From positions 156,736,001-156,800,000 of the forward strand of contig OZ024741.1 in assembly GCA_964016885.1 (NCBI GenBank): a stretch of 64,000 bases of DNA. Reading direction: 5' to 3'. Under the pieces are notes generated by a model. The model was not told where the DNA came from, did no database searches, and saw only the letters and a list, made by a program, of their open reading frames with translations. Position 1 is the stretch's first letter; the number at the start of each line of letters is the position of its first letter. Both the position numbers and the translations under genes were made by a program. This DNA comes from Eledone cirrhosa (Eukaryota). This document shows, in pieces, positions 5,573-41,690 of this stretch.

Positions 5573-6184
5573 TCAGATATTCAGGACGTATCGGAGGGTT
5601 CTTGCTGTTCCCAGCAAGCATGCCTTTTGAAGCGTTCCAAAAAGCGTGAAGGGGCCAATTTTCTTTAACCATCCCTGGAAACTTTTGGAGATAGTCCCTA
5701 GTGCGCCAATGACAATCGGGATCACTTTGACTTCATGGCAGTTCCAAATCCTTTTTACCTCCCACTTTAAGTCCTGGTATCGGTTAATTTTCTCCCTCTC
5801 CTTCTCTTGCACTCTCGTGTCGAATGGACAGGCCACATCCAGAATCAGGCACGATCTTTTTTCTTTGTCCAAAACCACCAGGTCAGGTCTATTGTGTTCC
5901 AGTTTCTTGTCCGTCTGTATCCTAAAATCCGACAGCACCTTCACCTGATCATTTTCTATCACCGCCTCTGGCTTATGCTCATACCACTTCTCAGAATGTG
6001 GTAAATTGTTTACTTTGCATAGGTGCCAGTGGATCACCCTGCCCATCACATCATGTCTCCAGCCCTTATAGTGAGTCTGGGCTAGGTGTTCACACTCGGA
6101 TACAATGTGAGCCACAGTCTCCTCTCTCTCTCCACAGATCCTGCACAGTGGGCTAGCCTCCACCTCGTAAATGTGGTGTTTCAA
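5573..6184 (-). pseudogene. Zinc knuckle plus RLE endonuclease domain of the R4/Dong-like LINE
   Basis: CRICGEREETVAHIVSEC, WRHD, NRPDLVVLD..ILDVACP, EKINRY; separated from the RT frame by an in-frame stop. Confidence 0.88.
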
Positions 6185-6205
6185 CCACTTCGTTTTGAGG
6201 GCCTG

Positions 6206-7594
6206 CTACTGCGCAGCCATTAACATTCCTTCTGTAGCCTTTTTAAGGTCTCCTCTTTTCAACCAGTTCCATGTCTGTGGATCTCTAAATTCAGTTTTCT
6301 CAAAGAAGGTACTATAAAGGGATTTTTCCTGAAGGCTGCTCTTTCTCCTTGATGTTATTTCCTCCTTGGACATCCCCTGGCCTATTGTCCCCTCCTTCAG
6401 TACAGTTCTGAGCATTGGCTCCTTACTATCAGTCACGTATGTGTGTAGGTTGTTTTTCTCCATCTGAACACAGTCCACTATGCTGATAAGACCTCTTCCA
6501 CCCTCAGATCTCCTTAAGTAGAGTCTATCGACATCACTCCTCTTGTGGAACATATTGTAGATAGTCAATAGCTTCCTAGTCTTCCTATCCATTTCTTTTT
6601 GTTCAGCAACATTCCATCTCAGAATTCCCGCACTGTACCTAATAATAGACACAGCTCGGGAATTTACTGCACTTATGGCATTCCTACTGTTCAGATGTGA
6701 CTTTAATACGCTCCTTACTCTCCGAAGGTATTCAGTTCTTATCAATTCCTTCATTTTTTTGTTCTTGATGTCATCAGCCTCCAGAACGTCCAAATACTTG
6801 TATCCTTCCTCAGAGTCAATTTCTTTTATCATCTCACCTGTTGGTATCTGGATTCCGTTATTTCTGCTCAACTTACCCCTCCTCATCACAATGACTCCAC
6901 ACTTACTAATACCAAATTGCATACATATATCATTGCTGAAAATACGGACAGTGTCAACAAGCACATCCAACTCCCTCTCACTCTTCCCGAAGAGCTTAAG
7001 ATCGTCCATGAAGAGGAGGTGATTGATGGTAAGCCCTCCCTTTCCCAACCTGTATCCTGCTCTCACTTTTCGCAGTACACTGGTCAGGGGCATCAGGGCA
7101 AGGACAAACAACAGAGGGGACAGACTATCTCCCTGGAAGATACCTCTCTTGATCTTCACGCTTCCCAAGGATTCTCCAGTTGATGTTAACTCTGTTTCCC
7201 AGGACTTCATACTTTTGCCCAACAACTGTCTGATGTTATCTGCCACCTTGAAGATCTCCAGGCTTTTGGTGATCCAAGAATGAGGCACCATGTCAAATGC
7301 CTTTTTGTAGTCTATCCATCCCATGGCAAGACCAGTGTGTCTCCTCTTGCAATTCCTCATTACCATCTTATCAATAAGTAACTGGTCTTTTGTACCACGT
7401 GACTTCTTTCGGCATCCTTTCTGTTCGTCCGGTAACAAGTTGTTTGTGTGGAGGTGATAGTAGATTTCCTCAGACATAATGCTTGTCAACAGTTTCCACA
7501 TTACACACAGACATGTGATAGGTCTATAGTTGGTAACATCATACCCTTGATTCGGTCTTTCATTATCAGAACTGTGGTACCTTTTGTCAACCAC
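6206..7594 (-). pseudogene. Reverse transcriptase domain of the R4/Dong-like LINE
   Basis: YRPITCL, QKGCR, DYKKAFD, QGDSLSP, FMDD, YKYL motifs. Confidence 0.9.
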
Positions 7595-9007
7595 TCTGGT
7601 ACCTCACCTGACATCAAGCAGTCATTGAACATGGTTGTCAGTTTAGGGTGGAGGGATGTTATGTTTTTAATCCAATACTCCTGCACACCACCTCGGCCAG
7701 GTGATTTTCAGTTGGTTAGTTTTTTGGCCTGCCCCTTAAGAGTTTCAACTGTGATACTCAAAACAGTTTGTTGGCGTGCCTGTTCACTGATCTCCTTCTG
7801 TACTATCTCAATCCACACTGCCTGGTCATTATGTTTAACATCCTGCTCCCATATTCCTCTCCAGAATGTTTTAGTTTGTTCCGCCTCAGGGATCAAGTCG
7901 TTGCCTCTTTCTTTCCCTTAAAACTGTCCAAACAGCATCTTCTGGTTGTTGTCGAACATGCGGTTCTGTCTATACTGGCTGACTCTGTTCTCGTATCGCC
8001 TGATTTTTGCACTCTTTGCTACAATGCGTTGCTTCAGTTCCTCTATGATAATATTTAGCTTTTTCCTCCTAGTTTTGTACTTTATTTCCAGTCTATTTTT
8101 AGTGTCTATGTTTTTTATTGTCCCATTCAGTAGGGACTCAAGCTTTCCAATGTCATTTCTCATTTCCCTGATTTGACCACTCAGTCGTTTCTTCCACCAA
8201 GGCTCTGCTCTTTCTTGTCTGTTGTTTCCTCTCGCTTTTATACCAAGTAGTTTCCTCACCGTATTTGCTGTTGCTTTGAGGATATTGTTGCACTGGTGAA
8301 GGCTACTCGCCTCAAGGTATGGGATGACTTTGTTTACCTTAGCTGTTGTTTCTTTTAACTTTTTCCTGTCTACAAATCTTAGATTCATAGGTCTCCCACT
8401 ATCATTGTTCAATTCATCTACCACTAAGTTTAGGATATCTACCAAATCTTGTCCTAGCCCGTCAACATTCATCTCCTCAGTGGCCGTATCTCTGTTCCAG
8501 GTATTATTTATCTCAGCATTCAGATCATTGTCTGTTTCGGGTGGTTCCTCCGTTCTCTCGACCTCTTCACCTTCATTTACCACTGGCTCGTTTGCCTGGC
8601 ATACTCCACCCTCCATCTCCAAGCTAATCTCTCTGCCCAGTTCCTCCAGTTCCAGCTCGCTTATCCACCCATTTGTTCTTATTACCCGAGCCTGCCCGGC
8701 CAGTTTTTGTTCATCTAATTTAAATGGACCAATCTCGTTCCAGATGTTATGCATCCTTTTCCTATAGCCTTTCTCCTTGGGGTTACTCTTCAGGTAACAT
8801 TGCATAACAGTTATATTCAATTCTTTCGTCCAGTTGGTTCTGGTCCCTTTCCTTCTTCTTCTTCCTCCAACACCAGCAGTATTTGGTTGACAGCCAGGTC
8901 CCTGCTGCTGAGCCAGGGAACACCTGTTGGGTGAGAGTCTGTCACATGACATTCTAGTCTCCATTTCACCGTTATTCGAACTGTTTAGGTTCGACATTTA
9001 AACACTC

Positions 9008-11235: not shown

Positions 11236-11244
11236 CTTACCAAT

Positions 11245-14200
11245 ATGGCCATATTAAGAGTAGGAAGTTTAAATGTTCGCGACCTGGGGTCACCCTGGAA
11301 GCAGGGTCGCCTGCTCAAAGACCTCCGGTCGCTGGAAAAGGATGTGATTGCCGTAAGCGAGACCAGAATTTCCGGCACGCGCGCACTAGCCCCCATTTTC
11401 GACGACTATCAGATCTTCGCATCTGTTAGCAGGCCGGGAATGGTGCGTGGGGTGGCAGTGCTGTTTAGGAAAGGACTCGATCTCGAGGTAAGGTCGATCT
11501 TCCGGGACCCGGACGGTAAGTTGGTGGTCTTGGATGTGAGCAGTAGCGAAGGTGGTGCCTTTAGACTGCTGGCCGTCTACGCCGCTACAGGGGCCAGACG
11601 ACCTGACTTCTTTAGGCGGCTAGAGACCTTTATGGGTACGTCTCGCCCTTTACTGTTAGCGGGGGACTGGAATGGCATCTTAGACGCACGCTGGGATTGT
11701 GTGGGAGTAGCCGATAGGAGCGGGGGGTGCAAAAGCCTCAAGCACCTACTCAGCCAGTTCCAACTGTCTGACAGGTATCGACTAGATTTCCCCAATGTGC
11801 CAGTATGGACATGGACCTACCGAATGGGGTCATCTAGATTGTATATAGACAGGATCTTCATTAGGAAAATAGATAGAAATAGTGTGGGCTGTCCACTTTT
11901 TAAAACGGTCGTCTATTCAGATCACAAATTTGTGATCTGTACGGTCGACCTAAATAAAACGCGTAGGTTAGGACTGGGTTACTGGAAGCTGAACATGTCA
12001 TTTCCGGCACATATGGCTTACAGGGACCGAGTCAACAATTTAGTTAAGCAAAAGTTGACAGAGGGGATCATCAACAACAGATGGTGGGGGGCTCTCAAAA
12101 GAGAGATTAGAGTAACTTCGATAGAGTTCAGCAAAGAACTAGCGTTAGAGAAAAATAGAAAGGAGGGGGAGCTGGTAGATAAGTTAGACGAGGCTATTTG
12201 TAGTGGCATCGCAACTGACGTGCTAGTGGCGAGAATGGCATTAGACCATTTCTTCAATGCCAAACACGAAGGTTGCATTGTCAGAGCTAAGGCGCGTGCG
12301 CTGAGAAACGAGGGAACTAAAACTGTTCGATGGGCCCGCGTGGTGTAGGCGCAGCGTGGTAATAAAACCACAATTCGGTCTTTGGCGGATCGAGACGGAC
12401 ACGAGATAAGCGATTCCAAGCGGATGTGTGAGGCCTTTCGCCAGCACTTTGCTCGGTTGTTCAGGGAGAGTGGCGAGTCAGAGAGAGTAGCGGATTTCAG
12501 TCCCTACCTTGAGGGCTTGCCGCGCATCTTGACGGTCGACGCTGAGCGCTGCGAAAGGCCGATTACTTCAGCCGAAATTCAGGATGCCCTTGTCGGCTGC
12601 ATGAGGCGCAAGTCACCCGGTTTGGATGGCCTGCCCTACGAGCTTTACGTAAATATGCCAGACTTGTTCTCCGAACTCCTCGAAACACTCTACTGCAACT
12701 GGCAGCAGAATGGGAGTATTCCCAGTTATGTGAGCAGGGGAGTGGTGACGCTGATAAGGAAAGACGAGAACAAGAGGGATACATTAGACAACTTCAGGCC
12801 CATAACTCTGCTCAACACAGAGTTTAAGATTTTGGCCAAGGTTTTAGCAAAGAGATTGGCGCTTGTCGTCGAGGATTTAGTTGGGGATGCGAAAACTTGC
12901 GCAATCCCAGCCAGGTCCATACAAGACAATCCCCACCTCATGCGATACATCATAGAGAGGGTAAGGTGTAAACCTGGCTCCGGTGGAGCACTGATCAATT
13001 TAGATCAATCGAAAGCATTCGATAGGGTCGACCATCGGTATCTGGAGTTTGTCCTCAAAGCAGCTGGCTTCGGCCCTGTTTTTAGAAACTGGATCGTTGC
13101 AATGTACAGCGGCACACGCTCGGTGGTCAAGGTTAATGGCCACCTCTCGGAACCATTTCGGCTCTCCCGATCAGTCCGTCAAGGGTGCCCTCTCTTCCCT
13201 TCTGTACGTATTGACTCTCGAGCCATTACTGTGGAAGCTGGAGCTGTTGCAGGGCATCCCGCTCGAACCGGGACGTGGAAAGGCGGTGTCGGCTTATGCG
13301 GACGACATCACGGTGATGGTGTCGAACACCTCAATAATCGAGGTGGTCGGCACCTTATTGAAGGAATATGAAATGTTGAGAGGAGCCAACCTTAACCCGG
13401 AAAAGTCGGTGGGCTTGCAGCTCGGAACCTGGAGAGGCAGGCCCATGCCGTCCAACAGCGTCGTGGGGCGCTGGACGGAAGGACCGGTAAAGTTGCTTGG
13501 GGTTTGGTTCGGACCAGACCTCCAGGTGGAAAAGAATTGGGACGAGGTAACGAGCAGAGTAGCCAGTCTCACCCAAAAATGGGCTGGGAGGAAGCTATCA
13601 CTGAAATGTCGCGCGGAGGTGGCGAATGCGTACATCGCGTCAGTCATTTACTACTGCCTAACCGTCGTGCCTTGCCCCAGTCCGCGCCTCGTCAAGTTGG
13701 AACGGATCCTCTTCAAATTCTTGTGGAGGGGACAAGTTCCGTTGGTGAGGCGGTCCATCTACTGCCAGCACCCTCTACGCGGAGGGCTGGGCATGCCGTG
13801 GCTAATGATGCGCAGACAAGCGTTGAGGCTGCGACATCTCCAGATATTCCGCCTCAATAGTGAACAGGTGTGGTCGCCTTTTATCAGACGGGCCTTTCCG
13901 CAGCTCATTGCTTTGACTGAGCTGCAATCCTGGGTCAAGAAGAGACCGAGACTGGGTGACTGGCACCTGGAATGTTGCCAGGCACTCACTGCCCTCTACC
14001 AAGCGGGCAATGCGATCAGTAGAACTTCCACTCTCGAGTTCTATAGAGGATTAGTGGTGGGCAAGTGCGATGACGCACTCGGAGAAGCTTTGGGCCTCGA
14101 CGAAGTCGAACTGACCAGTCTGTACCGGAGGACTTTTGAGCCGGGGACCATGGACAATTTCCAGAAATCCCTCGCTTGGCAGTGCTACCGGGGGCACTGC

Positions 14201-14664
14201 CGGTTTGGGATAAACTCTACAGGCACGGAAGTGCTGTCAGACGGACCTGCCCAAGATGCGCACAGAACGACGAAACCGTTCTGCACGCACTTGTCGAATG
14301 TCCGTGCATTACTGACTTGTGGAGTTATGTCGAACAGCTACTGTCGCGTCTGGAACGAATCCGGCTATCGGCCGAGTCCATAGAGAAGATCGAGCCGCCA
14401 CCTTCCTTAGGTCAGGAAGAGCAGGAAATTTTCCTCTGTCTGGTGGCAGTTGCGAAAGAGATTATATGGTGGACCAGGTTGAAAGGACTAAAGACAGACA
14501 CTTTTCTTTTCGGCCAATCCCTCATCAACTTCTTCAAGTTTCACCTGGAACGGAGGGTGAGGGTGGAGAGAGAAGTGCTGCCCCCCAGTACATTTGCTAA
14601 AAGGTGGGTGAATGTGGCGAGAATGGCTCGTGTGAATGGGCCTACTCTGACCATGCGCCTATAG
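11245..14664 (+). pseudogene. LINE ORF2: APE endonuclease, RT, Zn finger
   Basis: SLNVR, SET, GDWN, YIDRIF, SDH (APE); KSPGLDGLP, FRPITLLN, DQSKAFD, RQGCPL, AYADD (RT); CPRC..ETVLHALVEC. In-frame stop at 12346-12348 and frameshifts near 13195 and 14190. Confidence 0.9.
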
Positions 14665-15131: not shown

Positions 15132-15199
<68 letters not shown>

Positions 15200-15231
15200 A
15201 GATCAAAAGATGCTTAAAGGAGTTCAATATA

Positions 15232-15298
15232 TTTTATTATGCGCATTTCAAAAACAAACATCATCAAACAATAATATTTGTGTTTTCATCAGATAAAA
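15232..15298 (-). ncRNA. Type I hammerhead ribozyme in the PLE pLTR
   Basis: ttttat CTGATGA [long stem II] GAAA tgcgca TA ataaaa, with palindromic stem III. Confidence 0.8.
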
Positions 15299-16498
15299 CA
15301 GGAGAACATGATATGAAGGCTAAAAAAAACACTTGTTGATAGTGCAGTTTTAAATCAACATTTGAAAAGTGGTTTTAGATTGATGTGTGATATTGGGAAA
15401 AATATTTTATTTAGAGAGGGGGGGAGAGAAAAGGATGAAAAGGGAAGGAGATGAGAGGGAGAGATGGGTGATAGAGAGAAAGAGATAGTTTTTATAACTG
15501 AGAGGAGATATATTTTATAAAGAGGGGTTGAAAACCGTTGGAAGATACTGTATAAATTAAAATTTTTTTGAAAATTAACGAAGGGAGGATATGTGCGAGG
15601 AAAAAATATATTATATTTAGGGAGGGGGGGGGGGAAAGGATGAAAAAAAGGGGAGGAGATGAGAGTGAAGGTGGAAAGGGAGAGATGGGTGATAGAGAGA
15701 AAGAGATAGTTTTTATAACTGAGAAAAAGATATAATGTTTTAATATAGAGAGGTTGGGAACCGTTGGAAGATAATGTATAAATTAAAGGAATTTGAAAAT
15801 TAACGAAGGGAAATTATGTATGGAGATAGAGAGAAAAAAATAATAATTGTGGGTGAATATTCTAACGTCAAAAGAAGAAATGTAGGAATTTTAAAATTAG
15901 CAAAGAGAAAAAGTTTATGTGTAGAAGGATTTGAGAAAAATAATGTGAAGTTAAAGTTTGTATATTGAATTCATATGTATTAATAATGAGTTCGTTGATG
16001 GGGAGAAAAAAATAATAATAAATTAAGGATGAAATTGAGATTAAAAAGATTTATGATAGAGAGAAAAAATAATAATGATTGCGGATGAATACTCAAAATG
16101 TCAAAAACAAATGTTATTGTTTTACGAGGAGATAGAATGAGGGTGATGAGTAAACGAGTATTATAGAGTGTATAATGCCCTTTAAAGTAAGGTAGATGGG
16201 TATATTTTAAAGAATATATGAGTATATATTAAAAAAATATATAATAATAAATTAAGGATGAAATTGAGATTAAAAAGATTTATGATAGAGGGAAAAAATA
16301 ATAATGATTGCGGATGAATATTCAAAATGTCAAAAACAAATGTTATTGTTTTACGAGAAGATAGGATGAGGGTAATGAGTAAACGAGTATTATAGAGTGT
16401 ATAATGCCCTTTAAAGTAAGGTAGATGGGTATATATTAAAAGAGGTGTATGTATATGTGCCTTTGAGAAAAGATTCTAAATTGATAAAGAATTGAATA

Positions 16499-18350
16499 TT
16501 AACTGTATACTTTGTGAAAAGTTCTATGGAATTTATGCAGGCAGATGGAAAACAAATCCGAGCGTCTATTTATTATGGATTCTAGGTTAGAGATAATGGT
16601 AATTTTTTCATTTAGGCAGAGATTACAGATTTTAGATAGAGAGCTGTTCAAGTACGAGGATGCAGAAGAAATCTTTTTCCAAAAGATGTTATATTTAATG
16701 TTTTTGTCTTTTAAGGACCATATGAGTTCTGAGAGAGCAGTGTTAGTTCTTTTAAGTTTGTATTTGAAAGATGAATGATGATTATAGAGACGAGCTTTAA
16801 AAGAGGTGGAAGTGGAGCCAAAATAGGTGAAGGAATTGGTGCTAGTTATAATTTTACATTCATAAATTAAGTTTTTATCGAGGCAATGGTTGTTGAGAGG
16901 ACATTTATTTTTAATGCGGCAGTTGCAATTAGAGAGATTATTAATGAGTGATCTAGTGTTATCTATAGAAGGAATTGGATTGGAGAAGTTGTTTGCGATA
17001 GGAATAATAGGAATAATAGTTTCTTGATTTAGAGTTGGATTATGAACATTTAGCGAAGTTGTGTTTGACGTTGCATTTGGGTTTACAGAAGTTAGCCTAG
17101 GGTTTACAATGACGTCAGGAGTACTATTATTGTTATTATGAAATTCAATATTGGAAGGAAGAGATTTAGTATTTAATATTTTGTTGTTGTGTTTAGAGAT
17201 GATGTTGGAAATATTGGAGGATGTAGAATACGAAAATTTGATGGTGTGTTTGTTAAATATTTTACTATAGATATGTGAGGGAGGGAAGCATTTATTTAAG
17301 GCACTAAAAAATAATTTAGGAATATTGTTATTAATAGAGATGGAGAAAGGAGCATTATACCAGATTATGTTTTTGTATCTAGGTCTTTTATTAAAATTAT
17401 TGGAATGGTTATGATTAAATATTCTACTGTAAGTTTTCCTAGAATTTGTTTCTTTATTATATTTGATTTTATCTGGATAGCCGGCTTTAGAAAGTGCGTT
17501 ATTATAGTAATTGGCGTTAGCATCAAAGATGTTTTTATTAGAAGATATGTTAGATATTCTATTTCCAATATTATTAACTATAGCATTCTTGATATTGGTA
17601 GGATGGTTAGATTTAAAGTTAACATAATTAAGATTCTCATTGTTTTTATGGTAAGGGTAATATAGGCCAGTGTCAAGATTAAGAGATACATCCAAGAAAT
17701 TAGCTAGTTTGGTACTATTATCAAATTCAATTTTTAGGTTATGTTGGTTAAAGAGATTACGTATATTGTTCTTAATAATATTAAGTTTAACTATATTGCA
17801 ATTTAGGATAGTAAAGAGTCCATCGTCACGATAAATTCCACCGCGAAGTTGAGGAATTTTCCGACTCAAAGAGTTCAAAATGAAGATACCAATTAAATCA
17901 GTCAATTGGGATGAATCGGATGCTCCCATTGTGATGTCGAAGTTGTTAGAGGTATCGGCTCTGGTCCAATATTCGTTGTTGAACTCTAGGATGGTTTTAC
18001 GTGCGGTGAGGATGATGTGAAGTTCATCTGTGGTGATGTCAGAATATTTAAGTGCGAAAGATAGAGCATTATTGAGAAGTGAAGGCGAAATGGAGGAATA
18101 GTAGCTGGCAATATCGAATTGAATAAATTTTAGTTTGTTTTTATTATCCAATTTGTTGAACCAGCCAATCACTTCAGAAGTACCAAACCATAAATTTAGG
18201 TTTAAAGAAGAGCAATTAGAACTAACCTGTGGGATAATCCTATCCAAGATGGCTTTACTAACAACCCCCAGATCAGATTTAGAGGGGGCGATTAATCTAA
18301 CAGGTAGTTCAGTGAGAAAATTGTTTTTGTGATCCTTGAGATTTATTAAA
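16499..18350 (-). CDS. PLE polyprotein (RT plus GIY-YIG endonuclease), 5'-truncated but open
   Basis: QFDIASYYSSI, TMGASDS, IYRDDGL, NFLDV; CNC..CPL..C, IYEC..YFGST..FKARLYNH, CNLC..EK..C.H. The frame extends upstream of 18247 (LKDHK..PVRLIAPSKSDLG) to the inversion junction. Confidence 0.88.
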
Positions 18351-18788
18351 ACATTATATCTTTTTCTCAGTTATAAAAACTATCTCTTTCTCTCTATCAC
18401 CCATCTCTCCCTTTCCACCTTCACTCTCATCTCCTCCCCTTTTTTTCATCCTTTCCCCCCCCCTCCCTAAATATAATATATTTTTTCCTCGCACATATCC
18501 TCCCTTCGTTAATTTTCAAAAATTTTTTAATTTATACAGTATCTTCCAACGGTTTTCAACCCCTCTTTATAAAATATATCTCCTCTCAGTTATAAAAACT
18601 ATCTCTTTCTCTCTATCACCCATCTCTCCCTCTCATCTCCTTCCCTTTTCATCCTTTTCTCTCCCCCCCTCTCTAAATAAAATATTTTTCCCAATATCAC
18701 ACATCAATCTAAAACCACTTTTCATATGTTGATTTAAAACTGCACTATCAACAAGTGTTTTTTTTAGCCTTCATATCATGTTCTCCTG

Positions 18789-18855
18789 TTTTATCTGATG
18801 AAAATACAAATATTATTGTTTGATGATGTTTGTTTTTGAAATGCGCATAATAAAA
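18789..18855 (+). ncRNA. Type I hammerhead ribozyme in the inverted pLTR copy
   Basis: ttttat CTGATGA aaatacaaatattatt-gttt-gatgatgtttgttttt GAAA tgcgca TA ataaaa; predicted cleavage after 18849. Confidence 0.8.
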
Positions 18856-18978
18856 TATATTGAACTCCTTTAACCATCTTTTGATCTTATATTATGCATA
18901 CTCCAGTCCCACAAACTGTAGAGTGCTTCTTATCCGATATCTGCATTGCTTTATTGTACTACAATAAAACTCACCTCC

Positions 18979-19068
<90 letters not shown>

Positions 19069-19446: not shown

Positions 19447-19945
19447 TATTGAAGTTTCCGTTGAAAATTGAAAAAGTCATAGGAGTGAAGAGTGCTCTAT
19501 GTAAGTACCAGAGCAAAATTTAATGTATAATAAACAATACAATATAATTACCTCACTACCAGAGGTTTCCCGAATAAGACGAATACGAAAAACGTCCTCA
19601 TTCGTTCGTCGGACAAGGCAATTTAAAACATAGTGAAATATTTGGAAAGTCTCCCCAAGAAATGCAAAACATATAAATAAAAGTAATGAAAGAGATATAT
19701 AAAAAAAATATAAGGAAATATAGTTAGGGTATGTGTATATGTATGTATATACACTCACAAATGTACATATGTGTGTATGTACAAATGCATGTGTATGGTG
19801 AAAATGTGTGCGTTAGTACATATATGAGGGCAAGTATATTTGTGTATATGTGACCACAAATACGTATAATATATGAGTTGAAAAAGAAATTGTATGAAAA
19901 TATGGTTGACACGCATCCAGATACAGGTATTAAATACACATACGT
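19445..19945 (-). mobile_element. Second copy of the CCGACGA-hammerhead repeat (motif 19551-19618)
   Basis: Homology to 3438-3776. Minus strand reads ccttgt CCGACGA...GAAA cc-tct-gg TA gtgagg. Confidence 0.6.
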
Positions 19946-19946
19946 G

Positions 19947-22900
19947 TATGACAAGGGAGGCGCCGTAGTGGTGTGGTGCGCGGACCTCTACACGGCCGAA
20001 GCCCTCAGGCAGCTCTGTAACCCCCTCTTCTACCGCCTTCTACCCTCCGATCCCACCCCCCTCTACAACAACAAGTCTCCTCCACCATCAAAGATCTTAT
20101 CGCCTCCTCCCTCCTCCCCCCCCGCTTCCCACCTCATCGTCCGCACCCCCCGCACCCCCACCATCTACTTCCTCCCCAAACTCCACAAACCCGACAACCC
20201 CGGCCGCCCCATCGTCTCCGCTTGCAACTGCCCCACCGAACTCATCTCCGCCTTTCTCGACTCCATCCTCGCCCCCCTTGTCACCACCCTCCCCTCCCAC
20301 ATCTCCGACACCAACCACGCCCTGCGCCTTTTCGACTCCTTCACCTACCCACCCGGCCCACAGCCCTTCCTCTTCACCCTAGACATCAAGTCCCTCTATA
20401 CCGTCATCCCCCACGCCGACGGCCTACGCGCCCTCAAACACTACCTCGACCTTCGCCCCTCCCCCATTCCATCCACCCCCACCCTCCTTCGCCTCGCCGA
20501 GCTGGTCCTCACCCTCAATTGTTTCTCCTTCTCGGGTGAGTTTTACCAACAGGTCACGGGGGTAGCGTTGGTTACTAGAATGGGCCCGAACTATGCCAAC
20601 CTTTTTGTTGGCCATGTTGAGGCCCAAATCTTTGCCCAGTACATCGGCCCCACGTCCGAACTGTACGGTCGTTACATTGACGACTGTATCGGAGCCACGA
20701 CCCTCACCCGAGAACAGCTCGACTCCTTTCTCTCCTTCTTCTACTCCTCTATCTCCACCACCCACGTCCACTTCTTAGACATCTCCGTCGCCTTCGACTC
20801 CTCCCACCACTCCCTCGTCACCTCCGCCTTCTTCAAACCCACCGACTCCCACTCTTACCTCGACTTCACCTCTTCCCACCCCACCCACACTAAACACTCC
20901 ATTCCCTACTCCCAACTCCTCAGGATTCGCCGCCTCTGTAGCCGAGATGCTGACTTCGAGTCCCAGGCCCTTTCCCTAGTCAGCCATTTCATCCGTAGAG
21001 GTTACCCCCCCCCCCCTCTCTCGTCCACACCGCTCTCACCCGCGCCCGTGCTGTCCACCGCTCCACCACCCTCACCCCACGCCACTGCACACCCACCTAC
21101 CGTCTCCCCTTCCCCATCACCTACCACCCCTCCACCTTACCCCTCCACCGCACCATCCGCCGCCTCTTCCGACGCCTCCAGTCCGACCCCTCCACCTCCC
21201 ACATCTTCCCAACCCCACCACTCCCCTCCTTCAAACGCGCACGCAATCTCCGCACCCTCCTCGTCCACAGCTCCCTACCCCCCAACCCACGCTCTGCCCC
21301 CCCCCCCGGTTCCTTTCCCTGTTCTAGGCCCCGCTGCAACACCTGACCCCACATCACCAATACCACCACATTCCAGGGTCCCAACGGCCACTCTCTCTCT
21401 GTCCGGCATGCTTTCCGCTGCACCTCCTCCAACCTAGTCTACGGACTTATGTCGGACAGACGGGACGTCGCCTGGCGGACCGATTCACTGAGCACCTCCG
21501 GGATATTCGTCTCGGTGGTAGTTCCCCCATCGCCCGCCACTTTGGTGGCCCTGGACATTCCGCACGCCATCTCACAGTCTGTGGCTTACTCCAATGCCAC
21601 GGAACACCCGCCAATCGCCTTAGAGTCGAACAAAGAACTATCTTCATCTTACAGACCCACACTTCCCCCGGCCTGAACTCCCCACCCTTATTCCTTTAGC
21701 CTTCGACCGCCCCCCTCCCCCCACACTTATCCCCCACTAACACCACTAACACACCCCTCCTTTTCACCGCCAACCCCACAACTAACAATACTAACACCTC
21801 CACTCCACCCCTCATCCGACCACCCTTCCCCAACTGACATACTAACATCCCTCCCTTCTTCTCCTCCTCCCCCTCCTTATCACACGCACACACACACCGG
21901 CACATATATACACGCGCTCACACTAAACACACACCCTACTACCACCACTAACCCTCACCCCCACACCTCCATCCCACCACCCCGCAACTAACCTCACTAA
22001 CACCCCCTGACCCCAAGCACACGAACACACGCAGCCACTTACACCACCCACCCCACACGCAACTAACATCACTAACACCCCCCAACGCCACGCACACGTA
22101 CCCACACACCCTCGTACACCACCAACTCTACACACCCTACCACCACTAACCCCCACTCACACCTGCATTCAACCCTTCCCCACCTCCCGTATACTAACAC
22201 CCACTAACACCCCCTTCATCAAACTACACACACACCAGTACACCACACTCCCTCCATAGAACTACACACACCCTTCTCTCCCCGCTCCACCCACACCCTC
22301 GCTCCACACGCACTCATCCCAATAACACCTCTACTAATACACACACACACCCTCCTCACTCCAACTTTCACACCTACCCATCCTCGCCCCTTTACCATTC
22401 CACCGACTGCTGCTATGCCCTCTGACCACCTCCCAGCACAAACAGACACACAGCACTCCCAGTGCTTGACCACTTCCTGTTGCGCGCGCAACCCATATCT
22501 CTCCTCTTCCGACCATCTTCATGGAATACTCGTATGTGGAACTTGACCACCACGGAATCCACTAAACATCATAGGATTTTACCAACTTTTCAACCATCCT
22601 CTTACGGAATCACCTATATAACTCACCCACACACACATCCAAAAATTTTTTCTCCACACGCCACCTACACCAACAATACGCTTAAACCCCACACACACGT
22701 GCTTTCCACCACATATTTACACCCTCAGCCTCCTGATTCCTCTCCCCCCACCCCTCTATCCACACACGCACAGACACTCCGACCTACCCCCCCCCCCCCC
22801 CCACCACCACCACCACACACACACCTCTTCCTGAACATGCAACCCGTTCTTCCCCCAACCCTTACTTTCACATACACACACACACACACGTACACCTACA

Positions 22901-28874: not shown

Positions 28875-28959
<85 letters not shown>

Positions 28960-30535
28960 TTAAACTTAAAGAACAATTAGAAGACCCCTTAACCCTGATA
29001 ATGTACTCCCGCTACATTGATGATATAAACATCGTAGTTAAGACACCCCCAATAGAGAACAGTCAGGAACTAGAGAAAAACACAATGGAAAGCATCCAGC
29101 AAATAGCTAACTCAATCCACCAGCGTATTAGAGTTACTATAGACTACCCAAGTAAATACCCCAACCATAGATTACCTGTACTAGACACAGAGCTCAGGTT
29201 AGATACCATTAATAACAAAAAACAAATCCTCCATTCCTATTATGCCAAACCCATGACTTCCAAACATCTGATCCACCGAAACTCGGCCGTTTCGGACCAT
29301 ACCAAAATCAACATACTGATTGCGGATTTGGTACGGGTGATGAGAAACGTGTCCCGCATGTTCAACCCCGAAGAACTAGAGAGACACATACAACACTTCA
29401 TCCACCGTATGCAGTTCTCTGGCTACAATCAGAGAGATAAAATCAGAGTGTATAGAGGAGCCAGAACCAAATGGGAAAAAATGGTAAATAATGACATAAA
29501 TGGGACCTGCCCCTTGTATAGGAGCAAATTTTGGAATAGAATAGAAAGAACCAGGAACAAGGCTAATAGAATAAACTCATGGTATGATAGCAATAAATAC
29601 CAGAGTGTAATGTTCATCGATACAACCCCTAGAGGTGAATTAGCTTACAAATTTAGAAGGGCCCTAGATAAACATAAACTCAATATTAAGATAGTAGAAA
29701 GACCAGGTACCTACGTAAAAACACTTATTAGCAAGACATACCCTTTTCAAAGACCCTCATGTATAGATAAGAAATGTATAACCTGTAAAATAAGCCCCAA
29801 TATTAACTGTAAAACTAGAAATGTAGTGTATAGCATAAGATGTACTGAAGGACAATGTAGAGACAAAAATATAGTGTACATAGGTGAGACAGCTCGTAGT
29901 GTAGGGGAACGGATAAATGAAGACTGGCGAGACCTTCAAGATAGTAAAGAATCATCTGTACTCTACCAACATGCTAAAATAGAACATAAGGGTAAATTAG
30001 AGAACATAGAAATAAAAATAGAATCTACACACAGAAAAGACGCAATGTTTAGACAAATCACAGAGGCAATAAACATAAAAGAATTACAACCAAAATTAAA
30101 TAGAAAATATGAGTGGAACAGCAACATCACAACTTACAATTAAGGACAAAATGAATACACACACATAGAACAAACAACCAACCAGTAACATGTAAATAAA
30201 CAAATAAATAAATGAACATAAACACACACAGACACCTGGATGTGGCGCATGCGCAGACTGAGCACACAACACACACACAGAAACAAAATGGCGTAGGACA
30301 GAACAAAGGAGAGGCACAAAAACAAAGAAAGGAATCCCCAGTCACTGAAGAGGTCACAGAGTGTGTGACGAAAGAACTATGACAATATATAAACTATCTG
30401 GTTCTGGAACCAACCAACCAACCAGAAATTTATAAATTTATAAATTTATTATAAATTTATTATAATAAATTGAAGTGAAAGCAACTGGTGCGTGTGTTTC
30501 TTATTGGCAACATGACCCTCCCAAAGTACAACAAT
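28960..30535 (+). mobile_element. 5'-truncated PLE (C-terminal RT, GIY-YIG, 3' UTR)
   Basis: YSRYIDD, LPVLD, YAKPM, CIDKKCITC, VVYSIRC..YIGETARSVGERINE, stop at 30143. HHR in the UTR; (TA)n on both sides. Confidence 0.88.
30341..30383 (+). ncRNA. Type I hammerhead ribozyme in the PLE 3' UTR
   Basis: gtca CTGAAGA g-gtcaca-gagtg-tgtgac GAAA gaac TA tgac. Confidence 0.75.
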
Positions 30536-30577
30536 ATATATATATACATATATGTATATACATATATATATATATAT

Positions 30578-31195
30578 GGTTGTTTACAAACGCACCGAGC
30601 ATTATAATAAATGTTCGGTGAATCCATACGTACATATATATATATGTGTGCATGTATGTATATATATATATACATACTACTGTACGTCTGTATACATATA
30701 TGTATATACGTGTACATACTTACATTTAAGTAACAGCCGTACTAAGAGTGGGAATTGAAATTTCGTTTCATTTTTTCCGTTTATCGTTTTCGGTGCACCC
30801 GGCCGATTAATCCACTCGATATGCAAATTGGGCTACTCAGCCGTTAATATGCATAAGGTAAGTATATACCTTCAACAATCTGGCAGGAGGGTATATGTTG
30901 CTGACGATAGCTAATAAGCTTGAAACTAGTACAGCGTTCCTTTGTCAGTGTTGAAGAAACGAGCAACGATGGTTGCTAGACACTACGGCTTAATAAGAGA
31001 TGTTTGTTTACAAACACACCGAGCATTATAATAAATGTTCGGTGAATCCATACGTACATATATATATGTGTGCATGTATGTATATATATATACATACTAC
31101 TGTACGTCTGTATACATACTTATATTTACATACTTATATTTAAATAACAGCCGTGCTAAGAGTGGGAAATGAAATTTCGTTTCATTTTTTCCGTT
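30578..31195 (+). mobile_element. Retrozyme-like partial tandem repeat, family 2 (period about 424 bp)
   Basis: tgtttacaaac at 30581 and 31005; HHR at 30896-30936; inverted homolog at 51977-52635; no credible ORF; flanked by (TA)n. Confidence 0.75.
30896..30936 (+). ncRNA. Type I hammerhead ribozyme
   Basis: tgttg CTGACGA t-agct-aata-agct-t GAAA ctag TA cagcg. Confidence 0.8.
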
Positions 31196-31222
31196 TATAT
31201 ATATATATATATATGTATATAC

Positions 31223-32964: not shown

Positions 32965-33830
32965 GTGGTAGAACACTGGAAGGTTATATCCGTAGTGGTA
33001 TAGCGCTCAGTCCATGGGACGAGTTAGGTAGAAGTGGTTACACAACAATTAGTTCACCATACCGAGAACAATTGTTTCACCTTAGCGGATCCTCAGCTCG
33101 TAATGGACATGGTTATACGGAACAGGAAGGACAACCGTACGAACGCGCATGCGCAGAAACGATCACTTCACACAGGCAATACTAAAGTGCGTGCAAGACG
33201 TGTAAGGGAGATAACTGCGAAAGTCCGAAAGTTTCTAGTTGATAAGAAAATTAGGATGTTGTTGTAATTCAATCCGGAGCTTTGTAGTTATGTAAGAGGT
33301 GTTTCCAGACGTGTGGACAACGTGTGAAGAATTCATTTCTCGTGTTTAGGCAATCACTATTGCATAATCTCTTTAGAATATTTATTCGTTCATCAATACA
33401 TAGTGCACACGACGGATTGCCCCTTGCGTATGGCTTGATTTTAGTGATGGCTATCCATGGTATGGAGTAGTCTATACTTGAGTCCTTGAGGGACCATACG
33501 TGGCTCGCGAGTTTCGTGGATGAACGTCTGTCCGGGTACCTAAATGTCGACTGGTGGTTCAGGAAGCGTTCCTTAAATCGGCCTTCCACCATACCCACAT
33601 AGGATTTGACCTCCTGTGATTGATTTGGTCGGTTGGAAGTGACCACTACTTCATAAACTACAGCGGGTGTGTTGCATTGCTGTTGAAGGGGACAAGCTTC
33701 GGGCTTATGGCAAGAGCACCCTGGTGGGTATTGCTCTTAGGGCTGTTGGTGATGTGGGCCTTTATGTTCTTAGCGCAGGAGTATCCTAGTTTTACTTTGT
33801 GTCGGTTTAAGATGGAGCGGTATTTATGAC
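32965..33830 (-). mobile_element. 5'-truncated PLE: GIY-YIG domain plus 3' UTR
   Basis: ORF 33269-33646: SYVGM..FKERFLNH..TKLASHVWSLK..CALCIDE..LNTRNE..CPH. HHR downstream in sense orientation. Confidence 0.85.
33063..33100 (-). ncRNA. Type I hammerhead ribozyme
   Basis: cgag CTGAGGA tcc-gctaa-ggt GAAA caattg TT ctcg. Confidence 0.75.
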
Positions 33831-38353: not shown

Positions 38354-38393
<40 letters not shown>

Positions 38394-38513
38394 TATAGAC
38401 ATAGAATATTCGAAAATATTCTGTATGTTTATAATAAACATTTTGAAGACCTAATCGCTATAGAATAGAATACGTCACGTATTACAATTAGATTCTCGAT
38501 AAAAGCAAGGGAA

Positions 38514-39796
38514 GTAATCTACGCGTTTCATTCTCGTTAGAAATCATCAGGACTACATATCCAGTGCTTTTATCGAGAATGACACAGCTAGAGACTTATA
38601 GAATACTTAGCTGTGTACAGGAACTGGTTTGAAAGAGCGGTTGCCGGTCCGGCAGAAATTAGAAATTGGAATAAATGCTCTGAAATAGCGATATATATGT
38701 GAATATAGACATAGAATATTCGAAAATATTCTGTATGTTTATAATAAACATTTTGAAGACCTAATCGCTATAGAATAGAATACGTCACGTATTACAATTA
38801 GATTCTCGATAAAAGCAAGGGAAGTAATCTACGCGTTTCATTCTCGTTAGAAATCATCAGGACTACATATCCAGTGCTTTTATCGAGAATGACACAGCTA
38901 GAGACTTATAGAATACTTAGCTGTGTACAGGAACTGGTTTGAAAGAGCGGTTGCCGGTCCGGCAGAAATTAGAAATTGGAATAAATGCTCTGAAATAGCG
39001 ATATATATGTGAATATAGACATAGAATATTCGAAAATATTCTGTATGTTTATAATAAACATTTTGAAGACCTAATCGCTATAGAATAGAATACGTCACGT
39101 ATTACAATTAGATTCTCGATAAAAGCAAGGGAAGTAATCTACGCGTTTCATTCTCGTTAGAAATCATCAGGACTACATATCCAGTGCTTTTATCGAGAAT
39201 GACACAGCTAGAGACTTATAGAATACTTAGCTGTGTACAGGAACTGGTTTGAAAGAGCGGTTGCCGGTCCGGCAGAAATTAGAAATTGGAATAAATGCTC
39301 TGAAATAGCGATATATATGTGAATATAGACATAGAATATTCGAAAATATTCTGTATGTTTATAATAAACATTTTGAAGACCTAATCGCTATAGAATAGAA
39401 TACGTCACGTATTACAATTAGATTCTCGATAAAAGCAAGGGAAGTAATCTACGCGTTTCATTCTCGTTAGAAATCATCAGGACTACATATCCAGTGCTTT
39501 TATCGAGAATGACACAGCTAGAGACTTATAGAATACTTAGCTGTGTACAGGAACTGGTTTGAAAGAGCGGTTGCCGGTCCGGCAGAAATTAGAAATTGGA
39601 ATAAATGCTCTGAAATAGCGATATATATGTGAATATAGACATAGAATATTCGAAAATATTCTGTATGTTTATAATAAACATTTTGAAGACCTAATCGCTA
39701 TAGAATAGAATACGTCACGTATTACAATTAGATTCTCGATAAAAGCAAGGGAAGTAATCTACGCGTTTCATTCTCGTTAGAAATCATCAGGACTAC
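38514..39796 (-). ncRNA. Five hammerhead ribozymes (38514-38556, 38824-38866, 39134-39176, 39444-39486, 39754-39796)
   Basis: Reverse complement of gtagtc CTGATGA tttct-aacg-agaat GAAA cgcg TA gattac. Confidence 0.88.
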
Positions 39797-40342
39797 ATAT
39801 CCAGTGCTTTTATCGAGAATGACACAGCTAGAGACTTATAGAATACTTAGCTGTGTACAGGAACTGGTTTGAAAGAGCGGTTGCCGGTCCGGCAGAAATT
39901 AGAAATTGGAATAAATGCTCTGAAATAGCGATATATATGTGAATATAGACATAGAATATTCGAAAATATTCTGTATGTTTATAATAAACATTTTGAAGAC
40001 CTAATCGCTATAGAATAGAATACGTCACGTATTACAATTAGATTCTCGATAAAAGCAAGGGAAGTAATCTACGCGTTTCATTGCTTTTATCGAGAATCTA
40101 ATTGTAATACGTGACGTATTCTATTCTATAGCGATTAGGTCTTCAAAATGTTTATTATAAACATACAGAATATTTTCGAATATTCTATGTCTATATTCAC
40201 ATATATATCGCTATTTCAGAGCATTTATTCCAATTTCTAATTTCTGCCGGACCGGCAACCGCTCTTTCAAACCAGTTCCTGTACACAGCTAAGTATTCTA
40301 TAAGTCTCTAGCTGTGTCATTCTCGATAAAAGCACTGGATAT

Positions 40343-41315
40343 GTAGTCCTGATGATTTCTAACGAGAATGAAACGCGTAGATTACTTCCCTTGCTTTTAT
40401 CGAGAATCTAATTGTAATACGTGACGTATTCTATTCTATAGCGATTAGGTCTTCAAAATGTTTATTATAAACATACAGAATATTTTCGAATATTCTATGT
40501 CTATATTCACATATATATCGCTATTTCAGAGCATTTATTCCAATTTCTAATTTCTGCCGGACCGGCAACCGCTCTTTCAAACCAGTTCCTGTACACAGCT
40601 AAGTATTCTATAAGTCTCTAGCTGTGTCATTCTCGATAAAAGCACTGGATATGTAGTCCTGATGATTTCTAACGAGAATGAAACGCGTAGATTACTTCCC
40701 TTGCTTTTATCGAGAATCTAATTGTAATACGTGACGTATTCTATTCTATAGCGATTAGGTCTTCAAAATGTTTATTATAAACATACAGAATATTTTCGAA
40801 TATTCTATGTCTATATTCACATATATATCGCTATTTCAGAGCATTTATTCCAATTTCTAATTTCTGCCGGACCGGCAACCGCTCTTTCAAACCAGTTCCT
40901 GTACACAGCTAAGTATTCTATAAGTCTCTAGCTGTGTCATTCTCGATAAAAGCACTGGATATGTAGTCCTGATGATTTCTAACGAGAATGAAACGCGTAG
41001 ATTACTTCCCTTGCTTTTATCGAGAATCTAATTGTAATACGTGACGTATTCTATTCTATAGCGATTAGGTCTTCAAAATGTTTATTATAAACATACAGAA
41101 TATTTTCGAATATTCTATGTCTATATTCACATATATATCGCTATTTCAGAGCATTTATTCCAATTTCTAATTTCTGCCGGACCGGCAACCGCTCTTTCAA
41201 ACCAGTTCCTGTACACAGCTAAGTATTCTATAAGTCTCTAGCTGTGTCATTCTCGATAAAAGCACTGGATATGTAGTCCTGATGATTTCTAACGAGAATG
41301 AAACGCGTAGATTAC
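40343..41315 (+). ncRNA. Four hammerhead ribozymes (40343-40385, 40653-40695, 40963-41005, 41273-41315)
   Basis: gtagtc CTGATGA tttct-aacg-agaat GAAA cgcg TA gattac. Stem I is extended by 16 bp (attctcgataaaagca/tgcttttatcgagaat). Confidence 0.88.
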
Positions 41316-41492
41316 TTCCCTTGCTTTTATCGAGAATCTAATTGTAATACGTGACGTATTCTATTCTATAGCGATTAGGTCTTCAAAATGTTTATTATAA
41401 ACATACAGAATATTTTCGAATATTCTATGTCTATATTCACATATATATCGCTATTTCAGAGCATTTATTCCAATATATATATATATATATAT

Positions 41493-41690
41493 AGGAAAAA
41501 GTAAGACCCCGACGGCTAGCTGAAGCCGTTTCGACGGCTATTTCTGGACTACAGAAATAGCCGTCGAAACGGCTTGAGCTCTGCCGTCGGGGTCTTACTT
41601 TCTCCTATTACCCACTCTACTACCCTAAGTATTGAGTACTCTGGTGCGTTATGGTCCATCTGGTTCCTTACCACAACTCCTCCGTTATAT
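41493..41690. mobile_element. Fold-back repeat family member
   Basis: 41493-41605 is a hairpin (agtaagaccccgacggc..gccgtcggggtcttact); the tail is homologous to 46161-46301. Confidence 0.75.

Follow-up and report, generated by a model that had tools for sequence, protein, structure and literature searches.

A young two-armed hammerhead retrozyme array in Eledone cirrhosa with paired outer ends of the PLE type

Within the window, the 64,000-nucleotide stretch of Eledone cirrhosa DNA analyzed here, positions 38390-41474 were occupied by two divergent arms of a hammerhead-bearing repeat, standing back to back in (TA)n and joined by a 2-bp microhomology (Table 1). The repeat period was 310, there were zero mismatches between units within either arm, and positions in the unit (310 bp; GC, about 0.34) were counted with 40380, the first base past the predicted cut, as position 1. 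In the left arm, the outer end (3' in the RNA) lay at unit position 130, the "A end," where 9 further bases were common to the unit and the TA tract, and the inner end lay at position 298; the right arm had its inner end at position 12 and its outer end at position 165, the "B end." The junction adjoined the unit's own 16-bp inverted repeat, and a second parse via that repeat is possible. Nine complete hammerheads were present, five on the minus strand and four on the plus strand. The first plus-strand hammerhead, with a predicted cut after 40379, recurred at +310, +620, and +930, and the innermost minus-strand one, with a predicted cut after 39760, recurred at -310, -620, -930, and -1240.

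Table 1. Positions of the parts of the array and of other element fragments in the window
Feature	Position	Strand	Detail
(TA)n target, left side	38356..38389	n/a	sequence
Left arm	38390..40082	minus	5.46 units, five hammerheads
Innermost complete minus-strand hammerhead	39732..39820	minus	core 39790-39760
Inversion junction	40081..40082		2-bp microhomology (arms overlap)
Right arm	40081..41474	plus	4.50 units, four hammerheads
First plus-strand type I hammerhead, extended stem I	40319..40407	plus	core 40349-40379
Hairpin domain	40438..40524	plus	unit positions 59-145, holds A site
35-nt "tail" between A and B sites	41440..41474	plus	at B end only
(TA)n target, right side	41475..41493	n/a	sequence
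LINE-like/PLE fragments (five)	5573-8997, 11236-14664, 19854-21699, 28959-30535, 33269-33736	-, +, +, +, - (in order)	

An earlier note on this DNA had described about ten identical units with a 310-bp period, no ORF, and (TA)n on both flanks. The period, the identity of the units, and the flanks were as described, and no ORF of at least 120 amino acids overlapped the array, which hence had no RT plus GIY-YIG ORF; for this reason an autonomous PLE was rejected as its identity. The array was, however, not a single head-to-tail run but the two divergent arms. The cut sites that had been listed (40379, 40689, 40999, and 41309) were right for the plus strand and left out the five minus-strand hammerheads, and the most informative part of the array, namely, its inverted layout and its fixed pair of outer ends, had been passed over.

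The hammerhead in each unit was of type I, with every consensus core base present, and agreed with the structure that had been drawn for it (gtagtc CTGATGA tttct-aacg-agaat GAAA cgcg TA^gattac): stem III was the 2-bp palindrome ACGCGT, and stem I, of 6 bp, was extended beyond an internal loop by a perfect 16-bp helix. Stem II had 4 bp and was closed by a U-U mismatch at 10.1-11.1, where a G-C pair is usual; U10.1-U11.1 has been described as a natural variant and the best-tolerated mismatch (PMC3088659). The same U-U also occurred in several unrelated hammerhead families of the genome (window positions 2393, 28335, and 30916 and locus L145). The 101-nt hammerhead stretch folded at a z score of -5.4, and its lowest-energy fold was without stem II as drawn. 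The five hairpins listed in the earlier note were all found in the sequence, and four of the five appeared in the monomer fold, where the agaatatt/aatattct pairing occurred too. In Rfam, which the note had named for a check, no match reached the gathering threshold, and the best match was a weak one to Hammerhead_HH9 (15.8 bits versus a threshold of 52; E, 0.47). In addition, a 9-bp alternative pairing of 40317-40325 with 40363-40371 set the distal stem I strand against two core bases and the 3' strand of stem II; this pairing, which is weakened by the commonest variant (position 295), could keep the hammerhead inactive. Transcription across both arms of a copy would be expected to give an RNA that folds back on itself as a perfect duplex of about 1.4 kb, in which the hammerheads were masked, and source copies may therefore be one-armed or very unequal ones.

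Pattern searches of the 3.0-Gb assembly found 4,225 copies of the exact hammerhead core (control, 0) and 17,238 copies of a degenerate core in which common variants were allowed. The first 96 Mb of contig C1 contained 59 insertions, which extrapolates to about 1,800 genome-wide. A total of 64 stretches were examined, namely, the window, 10 found by the exact core, 49 by end patterns, and 4 by the degenerate core, and all except the window came from these 96 Mb; they held 65 insertions, including one duplicate beside a gap (L055). Two arms were present in 53 of the 65 insertions and one arm in 12, of which 9 had an A end and 3 had a B end (one of these interrupted by a gap). Sporadic divergence within arrays amounted to 75 changes in 165,851 bases, and the family is therefore very young. 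The family was dispersed and multicopy and varied in unit number, as a genome-wide search for dispersed arrays had been expected to reveal. The 310-bp noncoding units, low GC, type I core, and dispersed copies agreed with the metazoan non-LTR retrozyme that had been claimed, and, as judged from sequence, the repeat is a retrozyme by each genomic test that could be run.

The non-LTR retrozymes of coral, mussel, and axolotl/newt (satellite 2) likewise consist of tandem 150- to 450-bp noncoding units with GC of <50%, one type I hammerhead per unit, a weak palindromic stem III, and no LTR (PMC7229834), and for them, too, circles and mobilization by PLEs have been described or proposed (PMC7229834; PMC7761336; bioRxiv 10.64898/2026.07.22.740005). 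Unlike those elements, most insertions of the present family had two divergent arms whose outer ends lay in (TA)n at the fixed A and B positions. A plant LTR retrozyme (type III hammerhead in LTRs, PBS, PPT, and 4-bp TSD) was rejected on the type I fold, the repetition of the whole unit, and the lack of a central region. The unit was also found nearly unchanged in sequencing runs X1, X2, X3, and X6, labeled as four organisms, and this presence may reflect related species, mixed samples, or transfer alike. A single closed 340-nt contig, seen in three runs, was discarded as evidence of a circle, since tandem DNA gives the same result.

The outer ends fell into two classes, A at unit positions 128-139 and B at 163-172, each passing into (TA)n; a rough script scored the transition from end to (TA)n in 42 of 50 cases. 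One A end and one B end were found in 52 of the 53 two-armed insertions, the remaining one combined position 149 with a B end, and the combinations AA and BB numbered 0. Because 29 of the 53 had been picked for outward-facing A and B ends, they are not a test of the A+B rule; among the 24 not picked for both ends, 23 conformed to it, as did all 36 outward-facing end pairs less than 10 kb apart in the coordinate lists. The A and B sites were separated by a tail of about 35 nt, which was present at the B end only. Direct repeats of at least 11 bp other than pure TA were found at both ends of 12 of 50 insertions versus 6% of shuffled pairs; compound microsatellites match themselves, and the target site duplication, which in non-LTR retrozymes is longer than 4 bp when present, was given up as a readout in (TA)n.

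The inner ends, by contrast with the outer ones, were uniform around the unit (Rayleigh P, 0.17), and 2 of 100 lay near the cut site versus 3.2 expected; they ignored the cut site, and the template was therefore continuous across it. Of 100 arms, 89 were longer than one unit, and lengths ranged from 0.2 to 27 units. Inserted bases, several times copied from nearby unit sequence, were found at 12 of 49 simple junctions, and at 24 of the 37 insert-free junctions the arms overlapped by at least 2 bp, compared with 18% by chance (P, 4e-10). In one insertion (L050, 1699-1970), 272 bp of unrelated, GC-richer DNA had been captured between the arms. The junction layout is, by analogy, the geometry of L1 twin priming (PMC2837659), in which two starts primed by the target likewise lead to head-to-head arms that meet at a microhomology. 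In L1, twin priming is reported as a variant route whose second start is unfixed and whose arms derive from different portions of the RNA; in the present family, in contrast, two-armed insertions were the majority outcome, both starts were fixed, and both arms copied the same unit repeatedly.

At the four common variable hammerhead sites, all passes of both arms were identical in each of the 44 typable insertions (5 insertions without a core in one arm were not typable), whereas a random pair of loci agreed at these sites 26% of the time. Variants were fixed in both arms of 33 insertions, and exceptions to arm uniformity at other sites were seen in L082, L084, L063, L064, and L049. Among these, L063 had the variant followed by the reference base at one site in both arms, which fits a template of two unit types or conversion between the arms. 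A 2-bp deletion and a double variant were rejected as locus-private markers on account of their presence at 9 loci and 2 loci, respectively; variants so shared among loci were therefore inherited as whole-unit types. The 2-bp deletion filled a 19-unit arm, and the longest arm in the eight other carrier loci had 9 units. This pattern is read most simply as passage through a monomer bottleneck with subsequent multiplication, and a circle supplies such a bottleneck; concordance of the arms would equally follow if one source locus were expressed per cell at a time. Most sporadic variants were confined to a single unit, but some in L047, L049, and L050 recurred in two or three units along a long arm, showing that local duplication occurs. 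In one insertion (L082, 576-4594), unit position 276 read A,A,A,A,G,G from the outside inward in the B arm and G in 7 of 7 passes of the A arm; this one case could reflect a template altered during copying (e.g., by A-to-I editing), a template switch, or central conversion. A-to-I editing was also considered as the source of recurrent A-to-G changes, which tolerance of G-U pairs explains equally well.

The inherited changes spared the ribozyme. The 24 distinct ones included 6 substitutions in hammerhead stems, all 6 of which kept or improved pairing, and one insertion in stem I; conserved core bases were hit in 0 cases. Among the 75 sporadic changes, 11 broke a stem pair, 1 lay in the core, 3 were stem indels, and 0 kept a pair. 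The difference between the two sets (pairing kept/broken or core, 6/0 for inherited versus 0/12 for sporadic changes; Fisher P, 5e-5) indicates that selection keeps the ribozyme intact. Furthermore, an older 316-bp sister family had the same two end classes and a conserved core with rewritten stems, and further sister repeats had in common the domain upstream of the A site. Older retrozyme-like sister families with periods of about 316 to 340 bp, in which the hammerheads differed and the hairpin domain and end classes recurred, were observed at the following loci: L033 (5330-5720), L090 to L119, L115, L200, L207, L212, L038, and L227. In a comparison of 11 natural copies of the hairpin domain, two hairpins had 7 pairs altered on both sides (compensatory changes), and the covariation score of 0.26 was matched in 0 of 500 shuffles and stood against at most 0.10 in slid controls; as the copies are related to one another and one of them served as the model for the structure, the covariation counts as support and not as proof. 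The third hairpin of the domain was unsupported in the same comparison (67% paired and no two-sided change). The domain is a candidate binding site for a PLE protein.

An inverted, truncated arm and a 30- to 40-bp tail at one end are reported PLE traits (PMC8557442; PMC3846280), and in vitro both strands are cut and extended by a PLE protein, a predicted dimer, from two start sites bounding the tail (PMC11167929). In the retrozyme family, an inverted 5'-truncated arm was present in 53 of 65 insertions and the one-sided tail (A+B) in 52 of 53; the paired ends about 35 nt apart and the inverted arm tie these insertions to PLE machinery. Endonuclease-bearing PLEs (PMC8557442; PMC3846280; PMC11167929) resemble the family further in their two adjacent RT start sites, their type I hammerhead upstream of the ends, and their AT-rich or (TA)n targets (Hydra clade). 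Unlike them, the present family had no ORF, both of its arms were 310-bp multimers, and its ends had short AT matches to the target. The participation of a PLE RT and rolling reverse transcription, as the earlier note had supposed, gained support from the end classes, the read-through of the cut site, the multiunit arms, and the concordance of the arms.

Three autonomous PLE families of the genome had two end classes in (TA)n, and two of them had inverted arms. The first, a Hydra-like PLE with intact 821-amino-acid frames at many loci, had ends about 46 and 134 nt after the hammerhead cut; the second had 7,956 exact hammerhead matches and ends about 70 nt apart; and in the third the ends were about 60 nt apart. 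The tails of the three mapped families thus measured about 60, 70, and 88 nt, with none of 35 nt and none carrying the retrozyme domain. Four PLE families, obtained by protein or hammerhead search and representing a minority of the PLE families of the genome, gave no sequence link to the unit (blastn) or to domain profiles (nhmmer), and the matches returned were noncoding sister repeats. The sole similarity found was in one Hydra-like family, whose stem II was identical to that of the retrozyme. In frog retrozymes, pLTR homology to PLEs has been reported for 24 of 57 families, whereas none was seen here with the four PLE families sampled. No PLE frame was named by Pfam above its cutoff (GIY-YIG E, 0.022 at best). 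The clade names given to these PLEs (e.g., Hydra-like) are presumptive and were assigned in part from motifs described in PMC8557442.

The array is probably a single young insertion of a dispersed repeat, produced when a PLE-type RT, primed from both strands at a break in (TA)n, copied a single predicted RNA circle. By analogy with known retrozymes (PMC7229834) and with dimeric cleavage via a palindromic stem III (PMC4209133), array transcripts would undergo cleavage at 310-nt intervals, probably by ribozymes in dimeric form, with ligation of the monomer into the predicted circle. A PLE protein would then likely bind the conserved hairpin domain and cut both (TA)n strands, in line with the cutting of both strands by such a protein in vitro (PMC11167929). 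The target ends would prime at unit positions of about 165 and about 130 to 139, consistent with the end pairing observed; each cDNA would roll through the cut site for the 0.2 to 27 units seen as arm lengths; and the two cDNAs would join at short microhomology, of the kind seen at the junctions, and be filled in to give head-to-head arms. The chances seem even that PLE integration is normally twin-primed, with one dimer using one RNA at two fixed sites and a circular template giving multiunit inverted pairs. Several observations stand against copying of a circle by a PLE: the four sampled families had no sequence link to the unit, the three with mapped ends had no 35-nt tail, the hammerhead had the U-U mismatch, a 2-bp stem III, an Rfam score far below threshold, and a lowest-energy fold without stem II as drawn, 8 of 9 frog retrozyme dimers were not cleaved in vitro (bioRxiv 10.64898/2026.07.22.740005), 12 of 65 insertions were one-armed, L063 had its two-type pattern in both arms, and one source locus expressed per cell would also give concordant arms.

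PLE-type twin priming on a long uncleaved linear array transcript, with a hammerhead that is weak or acts later, is unlikely. In vitro, unprocessed RNA was the main PLE substrate and hammerhead cleavage was not needed for insertion (PMC11167929), which favors a linear template and weighs against a circle; the two-unit pattern identical in both arms of L063 and the existence of long parent arrays (27 units) agree with it as well. However, new variants were fixed in all passes of both arms in 33 insertions, so that a monomer bottleneck would still be needed, and the 19-unit arm filled by the 2-bp deletion contrasts with the maximum of 9 units in the other carriers. Moreover, the inner ends were not clustered near the A site, unlike those of L1 twin priming on linear RNA, and selection preserves the ribozyme. 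Dual priming, in which the arms are copied from two separate RNA molecules, has been proposed for L1 (PMC2837659) and would account for the weak relation between the arm lengths of a pair (Spearman, 0.22; P, 0.13), but it is improbable, given that arm pairs shared their type in 44 of 44 cases versus 26% from a mixed pool and that two equivalent molecules give no obvious strict A+B rule.

The published suggestion that arrays grow locally (bioRxiv 10.64898/2026.07.22.740005, in which the link between retrozymes and PLEs rests on co-occurrence and pLTR similarity) would have a short PLE-end fragment insert and the array expand later by unequal crossing-over. The two- and three-unit variants in the long arms of L047, L049, and L050 are in line with it, but as the origin of the arrays it is very improbable: the youngest arrays were long and identical, older copies had 1 to 2 units at 94 to 95% identity, most sister-family loci (selected by a partial query) had about 1 unit, most sporadic variants were single, and variants fixed across inverted arms would be unexplained. 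Self-priming, in which the cDNA folds back and the second arm copies the first, has been suggested for inverted PLE junctions (PMC3846280) and would account for the concordance of the arms; in addition, 15 of 51 inner-end pairs lay within 30 nt of each other versus 10 expected (P, 0.06). It is more doubtful still, in that the inner-end distance was uniform overall (KS P, 0.57), 8 of 51 insertions were not nestable either way (two narrowly), just 4 of the other 43 needed a loop of 30 nt or less, the longer arm was either one (25 versus 26), and the halt of the copy at the opposite end class would be left unexplained. An assembly or fold-back read artifact of a simple satellite, although perfect unit identity and a palindromic layout are typical of artifacts and L055 was duplicated beside a gap, is scarcely credible, since arm starts, arm ends, and flanks differed, the A+B rule held at many loci, types were locus specific, and, in a public run that may be the assembly's own sample, 9 contigs had loose (TA)n ends at 40518 and 1 contig had such an end at 40549, positions that correspond to the A and B sites.

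The idea that no description of this family was known held in part: the two-arm footprint was not found in the retrozyme literature searched, but the kind of element has been published (PMC7229834; bioRxiv 10.64898/2026.07.22.740005). The word "inverted" was absent from the main text of PMC7229834 and, in the available text of bioRxiv 10.64898/2026.07.22.740005, stood in one reference title alone, with "tail" nowhere; the available parts of PMC8490949 and PMC11722881 described no inverted retrozyme arms. The literature search, which covered few subscription papers, found no paired PLE ends on retrozyme arrays. The reentry of retrozymes into the genome has been stated to be open (PMC7229834), as has the origin of the tandem and inverted structures of PLEs (PMC8557442). 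The family provides evidence at the level of insertions, with over a thousand near-identical copies, a PLE end signature, and multimeric arms of one type, and it pinpoints the start sites and brings together, in one genome, a conserved RNA domain and intact PLE frames. If true, twin-primed PLE integration would explain by one mechanism the tail and inverted arm of PLEs, their tandems, and the arrays of retrozymes, and the copies would preserve in an animal genome a direct trace of rolling-circle reverse transcription.

Other repeats of the window and the sampled loci were also of note. The Hydra-like PLE with intact frames lay in the window at 15195-18982 (ORF 16499-18370, minus strand) and at L180 to L195 and was very young, its RT region being identical at dozens of loci with full 821-amino-acid frames. 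Its tandem period of about 3.9 kb varied among loci and was close within a locus; its hammerhead had a long stem II, its two end classes were separated by about 88 nt, and inverted arms were present. It is a candidate active PLE, possibly circle-copied too. The five fragments in Table 1 are, by their motifs, presumably two broken LINE-like elements and three further PLE fragments. Another hammerhead repeat of about 430 bp, frequent in the sampled loci, was found at 30570-31200 and had a weak match to the shared domain. Finally, the right flank (41494-41690) was a two-armed insertion of a different repeat in the same (TA)n region that formed a long hairpin (z, -19.6), and relatives of this repeat were present in L038, L160, L227, and L244.
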